Under the pieces are notes generated by a model, which was given only the letters and a program-made list of their open reading frames with translations, was not told the origin of the DNA and did no database searches. A program made the position numbers and the translations under genes. 64,000 bases of DNA, from assembly GCA_036626195.1 (NCBI GenBank), contig JAZKSH010000001.1, positions 9,334 through 73,333 on the forward strand. Reading direction: 5' to 3'. Positions 9,102 through 54,071 of the stretch are shown here, in pieces. The first letter of the stretch is position 1; every line of letters begins with the position of its first letter. The stretch comes from Thermoplasmatota archaeon (GTDB lineage: Archaea > Thermoplasmatota > Thermoplasmata > Halarchaeoplasmatales > Halarchaeoplasmataceae).

Positions 9102-9635
9102 ATGAAAAGAGGTAAAGCATTTGTATCGACTTTTCTGCTGGCCCTTTTTACGTATCTGTTATTGACATTAGCTGCTGGCCAGTCCTTGGCACAGGAAGCT
9201 CCCTGGAGTCAGATAATTTGGAGTTTTGAAGAAATAGTGATCGGTATCTCGATGAGCTTGATAGCTGCTGCGGTAGCTGATCACATTCTCTGTAGGAAGG
9301 GAGATTTCAGGATGTTGAATCCTATCCGCTGGTTGATAATGTTGGTTTACACGATTCCGCTCTTCATAGAGATGGCAAAGGCGAACTTCGATGTTGCTTA
9401 CAGGGTCATAACGGGCAAGATAGAACCCGGGATTGTAAAGATAGACCCGGGCCTCGAAACGGACCTAGGGATAACCTTCCTGGCAAATTCGATAACCCTA
9501 ACTCCAGGAACTTTGACCGTGGACGTAGACGACGAAAGGAGCGAAATGTACATACACTGGATAAAAGTTGGGGAGGATCCAACTGAAAATATAGCTGGAA
9601 GATTCGTTAGATGGATAAGGAGGTTTGCAGAATGA
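9102..9635 (+). CDS. mbhA: Mbh/Mrp subunit MrpE-like (MbhA)
   Basis: MnhE-like membrane protein. It is the first gene of the 14-gene cluster. Confidence 0.65.
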   Translation: MKRGKAFVSTFLLALFTYLLLTLAAGQSLAQEAPWSQIIWSFEEIVIGISMSLIAAAVADHILCRKGDFRMLNPIRWLIMLVYTIPLFIEMAKANFDVAYRVITGKIEPGIVKIDPGLETDLGITFLANSITLTPGTLTVDVDDERSEMYIHWIKVGEDPTENIAGRFVRWIRRFAE

Positions 9636-31524: not shown

Positions 31525-31866
31525 GGGTGTCAGGTGACCGATGTAAGCCCCTTTCTGTTTGGTATCAGCCGACATTCACCTGCGCGTCCTACCTGCCGGT
31601 CCCGGAAAAGTCATCCCGGCTTTTTTGGACTTGCTCCAGTGGGGTAAAGTGGCCGTTTCATCGCTCCCTCTAGTTCTCAGCTCCGCAGATTAACTCACCT
31701 CCCTTGCGAGAGGTTTCGCACGCTTCACAGCTCTCTAGAGGACGTGTCGTTTCTGCGCCCTGAACCGTGGCTCTCACCACACCAGCTTGCACTGATCCAC
31801 CTTTCCTGTGGAGAGGGGACTTTCCTCAGGTTGCGACCCGTCAGTCAGCCACGGTCTCCTGACAGT
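31525..31866 (-). ncRNA. rnpB: RNase P RNA (archaeal), on the minus strand
   Basis: The minus strand carries GAGGAAAGUCCCC (the P4 5' strand) and ACAGAAAGGGGCUUAC (the P4 3' strand, CR-IV-like). A terminal ~12-bp P1 helix (GUCAGGAGACCG/CGGUCACCUGAC) closes the molecule. The region is GC-rich and ORF-free. Confidence 0.65.
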
Positions 31867-50299: not shown

Positions 50300-52807
50300 G
50301 TGAGAGAGATGGAAGAATCTACAGAGGAAACTAAAATGGCGGACGAAGTCTACACCAAACATCTAGAAGAGGAGATGGAAGATTCTTACATCAATTATGC
50401 CATGAGCGTGATAGTAGGGAGGGCTTTACCCGACGTTAAGGATGGATTGAAACCCGTCCACAGGAGAATACTTTACTCGATGAAGCAGGAAGGTTTGTCT
50501 TCGGACAAATCCCATAAAAAGTCTGCAAGAGTGGTCGGTGACGTTCTCGGTAAGTACCATCCTCACGGCGATCAGGCCGTCTATGACGCTTTGGTTAGGA
50601 TGTCCCAGGACTTTTCTTTACGCTATCCTCTAGTCGATGGGCAGGGTAATTTCGGTTCGTTGGACGGCGACGAGCCCGCGGCGATGAGGTACACCGAGGC
50701 CCGCTTGGAGAAGATAGCCGAGGAGATGATGGAAGACCTTAAAAAAAATACTGTGGGGTTTAGGGATAACTATGACGGTACTTTAGAGGAACCTGAGGTT
50801 TTACCGGCGAAACTACCCAATCTATTGCTGAACGGCGCGAGCGGCATAGCGGTCGGGATGTCTACCAACATACCTCCTCATAATCTGAACGAACTCGTTG
50901 GTGCGATAAAGTTGCTTATCGATGAACCCGATGCCGAGATAGTAGATCTGATGGAGGAATTACCGGCACCGGACTTTCCCACCGGAGGCATAATCCATGG
51001 GTATAACGGGGTGTACAACGCTTACAAAGAAGGTAGAGGGAAGATAAAGATAAGAGCTAAAACTGAGATCAAAGATCTGGGAGGAAACCGAAGCAGAATA
51101 ATAATCACAGAGATGCCCTATCAGGTCAATAAAGCGAAACTGGTAGAGAGCATCGCAAAGCTGGTTAATGACGACGTGATAACCGAAATATCTAACCTAA
51201 GAGACGAGTCGGATAGAGAGGGAGTCAGAGTGGTGATCGACCTGAAAAGAGGGGTGATCCCTGATGTGGCGCTGAATAAACTGTTCAAGCACACCCAGAT
51301 GGAAGTCACTTTCGGCGTCATAAATCTCGCCCTGGTCGATGACGAGCCGAAGATTCTGGATTTGAAAGAGACTCTCCAGCACTATATCGACCACCGGATT
51401 GACGTGATAACCCGCAGAACAAAATACGATCTGGACAAGGCACAGGACAGGGCTCATATACTCGAGGGTTTGCTGACTGCTTTAGACAATCTGGATAAAG
51501 TGATAAAGATAATCCGTTCTTCGGAAGAGGATTCGGAAGCAAAGGGTAGGCTGACCTCGGAATTTTTATTGAGCGATAAACAAGCTGCCGCGATCCTTGA
51601 CATGCGGTTGAGAAGATTGACCGGGTTAGAAAGAAAAAAACTGCAGGACGAGTACGAGGAGATACAGGAGAAGATAGAGAATTACAAGGAGATACTCGGC
51701 GACGAGGAGAAGGTTCTCAACATAATAAAGGATGAGCTGGACGAACTTGTAGAGAAGTACGGCGACGAGAGAAGGACGGAGATAAACAGAGATGCGGTCG
51801 ATGTTGAAACCGAGGATCTCATCCCTGAAGAGGATCTAGTTATCACGCTTACCCATAAAGGGTATATCAAGAGATTACCTGTGGAAACTTACAGGAAACA
51901 GAGGAGAGGCGGAGTCGGTCTAATAGGTATGGATACCAAGGAAGAAGATCATGTAGTGGATCTCTTCATCTCAAATTCACACGATTACCTCCTGTTCTTT
52001 ACCAACAAGGGGAGAGTCTACTGGTTGAAGGCATATAAACTGCCGAAGGGAAGCAGGCGTTCCAAGGGTAGGCCTATCGTCAATATGCTGCCCCGGCTGG
52101 ACGATGACGAGAAGATAGAGGATCTGATACCGGTCAGCGACTTCTCCGAGGACAAGTATCTGCTGTTCTCGACCAAGAAAGGCAAGATAAAGAGGACCCA
52201 ACTCTCAGAATACAGTAATCCGAGAGTTACCGGGATCTGGGCGATCAAACTGCGTGAAGGAGACGAACTTGTAGATACGAAACTCTCCGACGGCTCTAAA
52301 GAGGTGATGCTGGCGACAAAGAACGGCCAGGCGATTAGATTCGATGAAGAAGATGTGAGAGCTACTGGCCGATACACCATGGGTGTGAAAGGTGCTCGAT
52401 TGGAAAAAAACGACAAGGTTGTCAGTATGACGCTGGTAGATGAGGACGACACTGTATTGACACTTACCGAAAAGGGATACGGCAAACGCTGTGATGTCGA
52501 GAACTACAGGAAGACTAACCGCGGAGCTAAAGGTGTCATAACGATGAATATCAGGGAGAGGAACGGTAAAGTGGTCTGCACGCGCAAAGTGGAAGAGGAG
52601 AAAGGTCAGGAGCTAATCTTGGTCAGCAAAGAAGGCATGATCATCAGGACTGTTGTAGACGATATAAGTAAACAGGGGAGGAACACAATGGGCGTAAAAG
52701 TGATGGAACTGAAAGAGGACGATAGATTGAATGCTATGTCCAAGGTGATCGGTGAAAAGGAAGAGAAGGAGATCATCGAAGGTGAAGAGGAAGAGGAGGA
52801 GGAGTGA
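50300..52807 (+). CDS. gyrA: DNA gyrase subunit A
   Basis: [26 protein letters not shown] active-site region with the catalytic Tyr. Beta-pinwheel repeats in the C-terminal domain. Confidence 0.95.
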
Positions 52808-52976
52808 ATCGAAAAACTCTTATTTTCCTATGGATTGAGCTATCATCGAATTTAGATTAGCGCATGGGCGCGTGGCCTAGCGGGGAAGATGAAAAATAAC
52901 ATCCTCCCCTCACATTCAAGGCCATCAAGATGCCCTTGAATATAGCCCGGACATAAACCTATTCAAAACTTTAATT

Positions 52977-53051
52977 GGGCGCGTGGCCTAGCCTGGACAT
53001 GGCGCTGCCCTTCTAAGGCAGACAGCACGGGTTCGAATCCCGTCGCGTCCG
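52977..53051 (+). tRNA. tRNA-Arg (anticodon TCT)
   Basis: Acceptor helix GGGCGCG/CGCGUCC with a G3:U70 pair. Anticodon stem CUGCC/GGCAG, loop CUUCUAA. T arm ACGGG-UUCGAAU-CCCGU. Confidence 0.75.
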
Positions 53052-53178
53052 TTTTTCTGTGAAAAACGGGCAAGGCGAGTGCGTCGGCACTCGTCGGCGT
53101 CCGCTTTTCTGTGAAAAGCGGTAAGTTAGAAATCTTTGATTTCTGACACGTCCGTTAAACTTGCTTTAACGGGCAAGG
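53035..53178 (+). repeat. Direct repeat copy 1 (144 nt): the tRNA 3' terminus plus three downstream stem-loops
   Basis: Identical to 53349..53492. It begins inside the tRNA T-loop (GAATCCCGTCGCGTCCG). Confidence 0.85.
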
Positions 53179-53348
53179 CGAGTGCGGCAGCATTCGCCGG
53201 CGTCCGCTTTTATTTTTTTAGCAAGGGATGAGAACCCTTGGGTTCTAAAGGAATGAATTCCTTATCATCCTCACCAAGTATGCCTCGGGTTCGTGAACAA
53301 ATCTACGGTTTCGTATGATTTGTGAGCGTTTGGAACTTGTTCCGATCA

Positions 53349-53492
53349 GAATCCCGTCGCGTCCGTTTTTCTGTGAAAAACGGGCAAGGCGAGTGCGTCG
53401 GCACTCGTCGGCGTCCGCTTTTCTGTGAAAAGCGGTAAGTTAGAAATCTTTGATTTCTGACACGTCCGTTAAACTTGCTTTAACGGGCAAGG
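53349..53492 (+). repeat. Direct repeat copy 2 (144 nt, exact)
   Basis: Exact match to 53035..53178 at an offset of 314 nt. It is preceded by GGGTTCG plus a ~57-nt insert, which looks like a T-arm split by an insertion. Confidence 0.85.
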
Positions 53493-53544
53493 TGAATGCA
53501 TGAGCATTCTTTAGCGTCCGCTGACCTCATTTTAATCATTTATT

Positions 53545-53982
53545 CTAATCCGCTTTCACCACTGCTACGGTAGTCTCTGTGTGTTTGAGTACTCTTGTGG
53601 TAGTGCTTCCTATGAAAAATGACTTCAGCCCGGATCTCCCGTGAGAACATATATAGATTATATCATTTGGATTCGCTACAGCAGAGATCTCTTCATAAGG
53701 TTCCCCATCTCTTATCTCCGTTTCGAGCTCTACTCCGGCTTCGTCAGCCATTTTCTTGACTTTATCAAGCACCTTTTGCCCTTTATCCTTCTGTTGTTTC
53801 CTGAACTGATTTATCAGGTTCATCCCGGACTCTTCAAGTCTATGTCCTGATATAGCACTCGGTGGGATGACATAGACAGCTACAGCGGAAATTCCATAAG
53901 CCTTTGCAGCCTCTAACCCCTCTTCGACCCCATGAAAAGAAAGATCGGAGCCATCGGTGGGTAGGACGACTTTGTCGTACAT
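53545..53982 (-). CDS. Universal stress protein (UspA family)
   Basis: VLPTDGSD...IIYICSHGRSGL...GSTTTRVLKHT. Confidence 0.75.
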   Translation of the reverse strand: MYDKVVLPTDGSDLSFHGVEEGLEAAKAYGISAVAVYVIPPSAISGHRLEESGMNLINQFRKQQKDKGQKVLDKVKKMADEAGVELETEIRDGEPYEEISAVANPNDIIYICSHGRSGLKSFFIGSTTTRVLKHTETTVAVVKAD

Positions 53983-54071
53983 ATATACTACAATATAAAA
54001 CATGATAGTAAATATTTGTGGTCTGAAAAATGAGAGTTAATTTTATTAATACACCCATTTTTCCCTTAGCC

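Follow-up and report, generated by a model that had tools for sequence, protein, structure and literature searches.

What are the short tRNA-derived repeats and hairpins that flank a single tRNA gene in the genome of a soda-lake Thermoplasmatota archaeon? The gene, tRNA-Arg(UCU), lies in a 64,000-nt stretch of DNA (GenBank assembly GCA_036626195.1, contig JAZKSH010000001.1, forward-strand positions 9,334 to 73,333), which we refer to as the window and number from its first base. A preliminary description of this locus had likened the repeats to stacked attachment (att)-site scars from repeated integration and excision, and had offered terminator hairpins or a tandem family of small structured RNAs as the alternative. 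We show here that the repeats delimit units of about 52 nt, and we judge that these units are not inert att scars. The alternative fits the features of the units better than neutral scars do, and we tentatively favour a reading in which the units would be repeated tRNA-end/terminator modules that are reshuffled by recombination at the copies of the tRNA end.

The tRNA gene itself had been named correctly. It is recognized both by ARAGORN (52976–53052) and by Rfam (52977–53051, 60.9 bits), and is a single-copy tRNA-Arg(UCU) gene, about 170 nt 3′ of the end of the gyrB–gyrA pair. We delimited the units downstream of it by cutting the sequence after each copy of the last bases of the tRNA. This gives an array of six units of 51–52 nt (period 52/51/52, rather than the spacing of about 48 nt reported at first) together with one larger unit. 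Each regular unit begins with an AT-rich T-tract hairpin, the first three pairs of which use the CCG at the end of the tRNA or of the copy before it. Next come a linker (GCAAG or TAAG), a tetraloop hairpin of 7–9 bp and 2–3 further bases, and the unit closes with the core (G/A)CGTCCG, which corresponds to the acceptor 3′ strand plus the discriminator. As the recurrence of segments resembling the tRNA 3′ end had suggested, this core occurs eight times in 53045–53520, one of these being the tRNA's 3′ terminus. The features of the array are as follows.

52977–53051, plus strand: tRNA-Arg(UCU), with discriminator G73 at 53051 and CCA not encoded (ARAGORN, Rfam).
53052–53103, plus strand: unit 1, with T-tract hairpin 53049–53069 (including tRNA bases 53049–53051), linker GCAAG, hairpin 53075–53094 and core GCGTCCG at 53097–53103.
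53104–53154, plus strand: unit 2, with hairpin 53101–53121, linker TAAG, hairpin TTAGAAATC..GATTTCTGA at 53126–53146 and core ACGTCCG.
53155–53206, plus strand: unit 3, with hairpin 53152–53172, linker GCAAG, hairpin 53177–53198 and core GCGTCCG.
53207–53365, plus strand: large unit with an interrupted T-arm copy, beginning with the strong T-tract CTTTTATTTTTTT at 53207–53219 and GGGATGAGAACCCTTGGGTTC at 53225–53245.
53246–53286, within the large unit: 41-nt hairpin insert flanked by GGGTTC, followed by GGGTTCG at 53287–53293.
53294–53348, within the large unit: 55-nt two-hairpin insert, followed by a 17-nt copy of the tRNA 3′ end at 53349–53365.
53366–53520, plus strand: units 4–6, with units 4 and 5 exact copies of units 1 and 2, and the last core at 53514–53520.
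53035–53208 (copy 1) and 53349–53522 (copy 2), plus strand: direct repeat with a period of 314 nt.

The exact 144-nt duplication at the heart of the preliminary description (53035–53178 and 53349–53492) is real, and similarity extends to 174 nt at 95% identity (165/174). All nine differences between the 174-nt copies fall in one hairpin, which stays paired: unit 6 has its first hairpin as in unit 3, and its second (53491–53512) is diverged and still forms. Each copy had been credited with three alike stem-loops. Two of the units do carry the YTTTTC-TGTG-GAAAAR hairpin, whereas the third has TTAAACTTGCTTTAA, and the inventory had missed the second hairpin of every unit (53075–53094, 53126–53146, 53177–53198 and their copies). 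The T-arm copy is indeed split by an insert, although of 55 nt (53294–53348) and not 57. Homologues of the large unit are present once in a related genome, L004, and as two exact 121-nt copies in another, L006, with T-stem bases that match those of the resident tRNA (related loci and other contigs are given as L numbers). The hairpin-bearing inserts of the locus are each bounded by a short tRNA-derived direct repeat of differing length, namely TAGC, GGGTTC, GAAT/GAAC or GCGTCCG, and the intervals between tRNA-derived repeats, of 45–300 nt, contain no open reading frame (ORF).

The array is far from chance. Six distinct perfect hairpins of at least 8 bp lie within 440 nt here, compared with three in the other 63.5 kb of the window, all three of which are inside coding sequence, and the fold z-score of the region relative to shuffled sequences is −9.9.

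We retrieved relatives of the locus using the C-terminal half of GyrA, which identified metagenome-assembled genomes (MAGs) of Thermoplasmata from soda-lake and hypersaline sediments. The same tRNA follows gyrA in 11 related MAG loci, among which gyrA DNA is 72–91% identical. Nine of the 11 have 1–6 units of the same architecture directly 3′ of the tRNA, built from few hairpin types in varied orders. Across the genomes the array ranges from 0 to 8 units and the unit from 51 to 65 nt. The first unit of L002 is orthologous to unit 6 of the window, which places the additional material of the window towards the tRNA.

Searches with a covariance model built from the unit recovered 20 full units at E<1e-4, every one on the tRNA-sense strand and directly 3′ of a tRNA gene. 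They comprise units behind tRNA-Arg(UCU) in the clade and three behind tRNA-Ala in the soda-lake contig L104; a weaker match (E ~1e-3) lies behind tRNA-Trp in L007, and L109 was recognized by eye. Away from tRNA genes, no unit was detected by the covariance model in 736 kb, or by BLAST of the unit types in 975 kb. The units behind tRNA-Ala and tRNA-Trp end in copies of their own tRNA ends (GGGTCCA and CCCCGTGCCCCCA). The closing pairs of the first hairpin are CCG..CGG where the discriminator is G73 (Arg) and CCA..TGG where it is A73 (Ala and Trp), so that the closing pair covaries with the discriminator of the tRNA.

Conservation of the units extends to their structure. In an alignment of units on the covariance model, 94% of the cells are paired compared with 74.5% in shuffles, double-sided changes occur in 12 of 17 base pairs, and the covariation score of 0.452 (0.175 when shuffled) was reached by none of 500 shuffles, with slid controls far lower; the alignment was fitted to the structure model and the units are related by duplication, so these statistics overstate independence. 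The unit hairpins are thus kept by compensatory changes. Structure is also strand specific. In each of the nine genomes the array is more stable when folded on the sense strand (−796 kcal/mol in total, against −629 for the opposite strand), and sense-strand G·T pairs outnumber A·C pairs by 25 to 5 (p = 3e-4). On the sense strand, TTTT is found no more than 22 nt after the core in 31 of 36 core copies, tRNA ends included, relative to a background of 13%, and in 13 of 36 on the opposite strand; the enrichment has p ~5e-23, with units that are not independent. A sense T-tract of at least 4–5 just past the RNA 3′ end, as expected of an oligo-T terminator, is therefore present.

These results bear directly on whether the units could be functionless remnants of successive integrated elements that have each dwindled to about 50 nt. 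Integration classically leaves partial tRNA copies behind (PMC9897764, PMC5861418), an integrase gene stands at the tRNA in L012 and a remnant of it in L011, the genes downstream are hypervariable, and distal cores are at times degenerate (GCATCTG, GAGTCCA, GCGTCTG). The units themselves do not look neutral, however, because they have a uniform size, a two-hairpin architecture with compensatory changes, a G·T strand bias, T-tracts and covariation of the first hairpin with the discriminator. Both hairpins have been kept in this way over about 25% gyrA nucleotide divergence, and the spread in unit size is limited to 51–65 nt. There are no element-derived coding remnants between the cores; the units contain neither element genes nor the arm motifs that accompany the integrases of the clade. 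Moreover, precise excision is scarless, so regular 52-nt remnants would need a special mechanism. We consider a neutral origin of the units quite improbable.

The sense-strand structure at the end of the tRNA could instead reflect a role in termination or 3′-end formation. In the reading that we favour, each module would repeat the end of the tRNA gene, with a stable stem-loop standing where the T-arm/acceptor helix stands, followed by the last 6–7 nt of the tRNA and by a T-tract within an AT-rich hairpin in which the three terminal tRNA bases are paired. RNA polymerase that reads through the end of the gene would probably transcribe the modules on the tRNA strand, and they could then serve in series as back-up (fail-safe) oligo-T termination or 3′-end elements. 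The array would grow at its tRNA-proximal side, and would shrink and be exchanged by recombination between tRNA-end copies, either homologous or catalysed by an integrase. Tyrosine integrases of the clade appear to join elements exactly at the tRNA 3′ end, and such activity could account for the longer partial tRNA copies and for the duplication of 314-nt period.

Several observations weigh against this reading, besides the overstated independence of the covariation statistics. Oligo-T suffices for intrinsic termination in archaea, where hairpins are not needed, and the second hairpin and the conserved heptamer are therefore unexplained by termination alone. Nor does termination alone explain the mosaic of conserved cassettes or the strand bias of an insert upstream of the tRNA; the folding of that insert on the opposite strand (described below) does not fit a simple leader/trailer reading. 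The TTAAACTTGCTTTAA hairpin type has T3 only. In L005, L011 and L012 the array is either missing or degraded, and it is therefore dispensable. Finally, some units are 95–100% identical between genomes with about 76% gyrA identity, and their order and number are mosaic, a pattern more suggestive of cassettes passed horizontally than of a host function conserved by vertical descent. The features that go beyond termination keep two other explanations alive, one based on recombinase-driven cassettes and the other on processed mimics of the tRNA end.

According to the first of these, the units would be non-autonomous mobile cassettes with the tRNA-end heptamer as recombination core, inserted and shuffled beside the tRNA by an integrase acting in trans. 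This enzyme might recognize folded single-stranded hairpins, as integron integrases do attC, and single-stranded DNA substrates would also fold in a strand-specific manner. Mobility would fit the mosaic of near-identical units, the additions on the tRNA-proximal side, the short tRNA repeat that flanks each hairpin insert (TAGC, GGGTTC, GAAT or GCGTCCG) and the occurrence of one unit family at both tRNA-Arg and tRNA-Ala, with a one-base adaptation of the core. It would also fit the exact joining of clade integrases at the tRNA end, together with a putative attP site in contig L170 that shares only about 7 nt with a tRNA end. However, a unit of 52 bp is too small to circularise, the palindromic arm motifs of the clade integrases (GTACGAAnTTCGTAC) are lacking in the units, the length of the flanking repeat is inconstant, and the attP reading of L170 draws on one contig. 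Searches of phage and plasmid collections with the whole locus returned nothing relevant, and searches of viral contigs with the tRNA 3′ end, two unit motifs and a tRNA-plus-hairpin pattern returned only chance matches or unrelated phages; no unit or tRNA-plus-hairpin pattern was thus seen in the viral contigs, plasmids and phages searched. We regard the cassette explanation as possible, although unlikely. The same holds for its fullest form, namely that these are previously undescribed archaeal arrays anchored on tRNA genes, in which sense-folded double-hairpin cassettes of about 52 nt are inserted and shuffled by a site-specific recombinase at the terminal heptamer, making a miniature ORF-less analogue of the integron, with related modules behind tRNA genes of several archaeal lineages.

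The second explanation holds that the units are small structured RNAs or tRNA-end mimics, for example acceptor-end decoys, cut by tRNase Z and RNase P from a polycistronic transcript led by the tRNA. Each unit ends in an exact acceptor 3′ strand plus discriminator, the sense-strand structure is backed by covariation, and in contigs from other archaea (L133, L143 and L152) a single long hairpin makes up the unit, with the acceptor stem reproduced at its base and a short 3′ overhang. tRNA-like processing signals are also known in archaea, such as the tRNA-like element upstream of 5S rRNA in Haloferax. In the clade of the window, by contrast, the acceptor-like helix has only 3–5 bp with no covariation, which led us to reject a true acceptor-stem minihelix there, and the linkers TAAG, TTAG and TCAAG break the helix. 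The units contain no T-loop-like sequence and have no Rfam match, and a number that varies from 0 to 8 means that dosage is not conserved. We find processed mimics distinctly unlikely.

In L012, a 333-aa tyrosine integrase gene (Pfam PF00589; 7525–8526, minus strand) ends exactly at the tRNA discriminator, and the array is missing there; L011 keeps a remnant of the same integrase end. Homologues of the integrase adjoin tRNA-Arg(CCU) and tRNA-Met in the same orientation. No integrase was detected in the window, in keeping with the preliminary description: tblastn with the tRNA-associated integrase of the clade detected no homologue in it, other integrase types not having been exhaustively scanned. 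An integrase with element genes between the repeats was found in L012 only, and not in the window.

The integrases form a tyrosine integrase family of soda-lake Thermoplasmata (L012, L171, L172 and L170) whose 3′ ends face the 3′ ends of tRNA-Arg(UCU), tRNA-Arg(CCU) and tRNA-Met. A long hairpin and GTACGAAnTTCGTAC palindromes adjoin the core of this family, and L170, which shares only about 7 nt with a tRNA end, may from this one contig be a free attP. Two neighbouring genes are of the kind carried as defence or toxin–antitoxin-type cargo at tRNA hot spots: an MNT-like nucleotidyltransferase ORF beside the integrase remnant of L011 (7426–7761, minus strand) and a HEPN_LA2681-domain protein near the integrase of L172 (230–1825).

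The sequences of L004 and L005 (gyrA identity 90.6%) agree completely as far as tRNA base 13; beyond that point, L004 alone carries the upstream insert, the interrupted T-arm unit and a tRNA body that differs. L003, L009, L011 and L013 likewise lack the upstream insert, and gene content 3′ of the tRNA is hypervariable among the relatives. The comparison of related genomes proposed in the preliminary description thus reveals variation both in the upstream insert and in unit number. These observations support the view that the tRNA gene is a recombination and integration hot spot. That part of the stacked-scar proposal therefore stands; its other part, that the ~52-nt units are neutral scars, is not supported. 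We regard the locus as a tRNA-gene recombination hot spot with att-like repeats.

The duplication of 314-nt period is most simply explained if two arrays were fused through the 17 nt of tRNA-end sequence that they share. Its layout would be, on the left, the tRNA, unit 1, unit 2 and the first hairpin of unit 3. A block then follows that comprises a variant second hairpin, its core and T-tract, the interrupted T-arm copy, the 17 nt, units 1 and 2 again and the first hairpin of unit 3. On the right are the second hairpin of unit 6 and its core. A doubt raised at the outset was that the 144-nt identity might be an assembly artefact, and the window does apparently come from a MAG, in which an exact repeat of 144 nt exceeds common k-mers. 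However, the copies are 140 nt of unique sequence apart and diverge in an orderly way after the 144 nt, assemblers tend to collapse rather than create repeats, and independent assemblies of relatives have exact tandem copies of their own (59 nt in L003 and 121 nt in L006). An artefact is very improbable.

The region upstream of the tRNA contains a further partial copy, with an insert.

52810–52823, plus strand: box CGAAAAACTCTTAT, nearly invariant and directly 3′ of the gyrA stop codon, the probable B recognition element (BRE)/TATA promoter of the tRNA transcript.
52866–52881, plus strand: exact copy of tRNA nucleotides 1–16, GGGCGCGTGGCCTAGC, comprising the acceptor 5′ strand, the D-stem 5′ strand and the start of the D-loop.
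52882–52941, no strand assigned: two-hairpin insert, with a first hairpin at 52882–52909, spacer TCAC and a second hairpin at 52914–52941, and the direct repeat TAGC on both sides.
52942–52954, plus strand: copy of tRNA D-loop nucleotides ~13–24, ATAGCCCGGACAT, the second D-loop copy, after the insert.

The 16-nt copy and both hairpins are as first described. None of the former (GGGCGCGTGGCCTAGC) is expected by chance, and it occupies the position at which the tRNA starts in relatives without the insert. The first hairpin has 10 bp with one A·C mismatch. The insert is kept in seven genomes, with compensatory changes in the first hairpin and two copies in L012, and in L001 and L007 the D-loop copy shows the variant D-loop bases of the resident tRNA. 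The box CGAAAAACTCTTAT is found in 12 of 12 genomes with at most 1–2 substitutions. It lies about 45 nt upstream of the tRNA in insert-free genomes and about 45 nt upstream of the 5′ tRNA fragment where the insert is present. All 16 hairpins of the upstream insert examined across genomes are more stable on the minus strand (A·C 6, G·T 1). This bias is unexplained because the promoter-like box at 52810–52823 should place the insert in a plus-sense leader.

Inserts in the D-loop and T-loop, sites of known non-canonical archaeal introns, and fragments that keep the variant bases of the resident tRNA could suggest exons of a second, split or multi-intron tRNA gene. The fragments, however, span only nucleotides 1–24 and ~49–73 and include no anticodon arm. 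ARAGORN with introns allowed and Rfam each find one tRNA. The fragments also co-occur inconsistently, with the 5′ fragment in seven genomes and the interrupted T-arm copy in three. No bulge-helix-bulge geometry is seen at the insert borders, where no dedicated search for it was made; the consensus fold of the three interrupted T-arm units is an extended irregular stem without 3-nt bulges flanking a 4-bp helix. A second tRNA gene in pieces is hardly credible.

We compared the units with other classes of repeat and structured RNA. Rfam matches only the tRNA itself at the locus, with nothing else at E<=10 apart from noise. A clustered regularly interspaced short palindromic repeats (CRISPR) array was rejected: the candidate repeats differ between adjacent units (TTTTTCTGTGAAAAA and TTAAACTTGCTTTAA) and the intervening segments are conserved palindromes common to genomes. 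Dispersed palindromes, whether repetitive extragenic palindromic (REP) sequences and bacterial interspersed mosaic elements (BIMEs) or miniature inverted-repeat transposable elements, were set aside with no copies outside tRNA flanks in the 64-kb window or in the 736–975 kb searched. An attC array of an integron does not match two separate, mostly perfect hairpins per unit and the core GCGTCCG. As for type III toxin–antitoxin repeats, the next gene in the window is a convergent universal-stress-like ORF, and downstream genes differ among relatives. The sequence GGGATGAGA-12 nt-GTGA and an ACA after the first upstream hairpin were inspected by eye for C/D-box or H/ACA guide RNAs, and there were no canonical boxes or pocket and no Rfam match; the geometry of a kink-turn or kink-loop motif does not fit either. 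Casposon-type insertion would give target duplications of 14–15 bp and terminal inverted repeats, neither of which is seen. For a hairpin element of the IS200/IS605 type, the target would be constant, whereas the core found here changes with the tRNA (GTCCG, GTCCA, CCCCCA). General gene-end terminators are not supported, as no such perfect hairpins occur at other gene ends in the window.

The 3′ neighbour of the tRNA-Arg gene is the universal-stress-like ORF (53545–53983, minus strand), convergent with it, and an M32 carboxypeptidase gene comes next. The GyrA protein upstream (50300–52807) has an acidic C-terminal tail, …EGEEEEEEE, which varies strongly in length and sequence among the related MAGs, with long Glu/Asp/Ser-rich extensions in L003–L007. 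Elsewhere in the window is an archaeal RNase P RNA gene (31532–31860, minus strand; Rfam RF00373, 201 bits).

The acceptor stem of tRNA-Arg(UCU) has a G3·U70 wobble pair in 12 of 12 genomes (window 52977–53051; relatives L001–L013 and L104). G3·U70 is the universal identity element for alanyl-tRNA synthetase. The first four acceptor pairs are common to tRNA-Arg(UCU) and the tRNA-Ala of the clade, and the discriminators differ (G73 and A73). The presence of G3·U70 in tRNA-Arg(UCU) raises the question of how mischarging is avoided.

The tRNA-Trp(CCA) genes of L007 (8130–8500) and L109 (5023–5300) have an intron of about 100 nt with C/D boxes, and the Rfam tRNA model misses them at its gathering threshold. 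A C/D-box intron in tRNA-Trp is a known archaeal arrangement. On their 3′ side, these genes have a T-tract hairpin, two more hairpins and a 13-nt copy of their own 3′ end, and the two further hairpins show compensatory changes between L007 and L109.

Arrangements of a related kind are found in other archaea. We scanned generically for tRNA T-loops with TTTTC..GAAAA at the appropriate distance behind them. This pattern occurs in 81 metagenome stretches and in none of 2.9 million viral contigs. Within 20–160 nt downstream, the last 8 nt of the tRNA recur with at most one mismatch in 12 of 67 distinct loci, compared with 2.8 expected from shuffled 8-mers and 5 in an upstream control, a genuine though modest enrichment in a biased sample. 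In L100, L133, L143 (two units) and L152, behind the tRNA come an A-tract, a hairpin and a repeat of the tRNA's own acceptor 3′ strand, in many cases with a T-tract after this copy. In the last three of these contigs, a single long hairpin has the copy as its 3′ strand, and the A-tract precedes the hairpin. A T-tract follows the copy in L133 and in the first unit of L143, and none stands directly after it in L152.

One hairpin type, RAATC-N3-GATTY (for example, AGAAATCTTTGATTTCT), recurs 3′ of tRNAs in the unrelated archaeal contigs L100, L104, L131 and L155 as well as in the arrays of the clade. Behind tRNAs lie 13 of its 43 matches, within 3.6% of the bases searched.

We found no description of such arrays in the literature. 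Partial tRNA copies beside tRNA genes are routinely dismissed as integration scars, whereas here they delimit a conserved, strand-specific structured module, found again after three or more different tRNA genes within a single clade and with analogues in other archaea. If the modules are terminators or 3′-end elements, archaeal tRNA genes can bear elaborate, evolvable fail-safe arrays made from copies of their own 3′ ends; if they are recombinase-driven cassettes, they represent miniature mobile units of a new kind that have tRNA genes as their anchor. Under either reading, the arrays can mislead the annotation of tRNA fragments and att sites, and in uncultured Thermoplasmata they serve as markers for hot spots of genome plasticity.

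The arrays share features with several known systems. Partial tRNA gene fragments are known at archaeal integration sites (PMC9897764), and in SNJ2-type systems the att core is the 3′-distal part of the tRNA gene, with the 3′ end of int close by (PMC5861418). Like these att repeats, those described here are direct repeats identical to the 3′-distal part of a tRNA, vary in presence and lie in a hypervariable neighbourhood, and the 3′ end of the integrase gene faces the tRNA end in L012 and L171. Unlike them, the repeats of the window have no element or integrase between them (intervals of 45–300 nt) and bound uniform double-hairpin units with covariation, strand bias and T-tracts. The core is 14 bp or more in the described systems and 6–7 nt here.

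Consecutive oligo-dT terminators are known in archaea, as in the four T-tracts of a Pyrococcus histone gene (PMC2253867). The arrays resemble these in having serial sense T-tracts just 3′ of a highly expressed gene, with no coding potential. They differ in that the T-tract is combined with the last 7 nt of the tRNA and two conserved hairpins and in that tandem duplicates vary in number, and termination would here be a predicted function.

REP and BIME sequences consist of few hairpin types in modular mosaics with short linkers, extragenic at gene ends and variable in copy number. The units are likewise a modular hairpin mosaic with short linkers, extragenic at a gene end and of variable number. 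REP sequences, however, occupy hundreds of dispersed sites, whereas these units occur only directly 3′ of tRNA genes and have a tRNA-specific core.

Integron cassette arrays have a short conserved core, sites whose structure is more conserved than their sequence, strand-specific folding and polar addition. The tRNA arrays are similar in being made of units bounded by a short core, in conserving structure over sequence, in folding strand-specifically and in polar addition beside an anchor. They contain no ORFs, have two perfect hairpins instead of one imperfect R/L-box hairpin, and lack the GTTRRRY core; no integron integrase was seen, with no search aimed at one.

Tycheposon-type islands are a further case (bioRxiv 10.1101/2020.12.28.424599). 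In these, a tRNA gene reportedly acts as the hot spot, where repeated integration leaves a series of partial tRNAs separating kilobase-sized cargo. The locus described here is alike in having a tRNA gene as a hot spot with a series of partial tRNA copies, and differs in that the intervals between them are hairpin modules of about 50 nt rather than kilobase-sized cargo.

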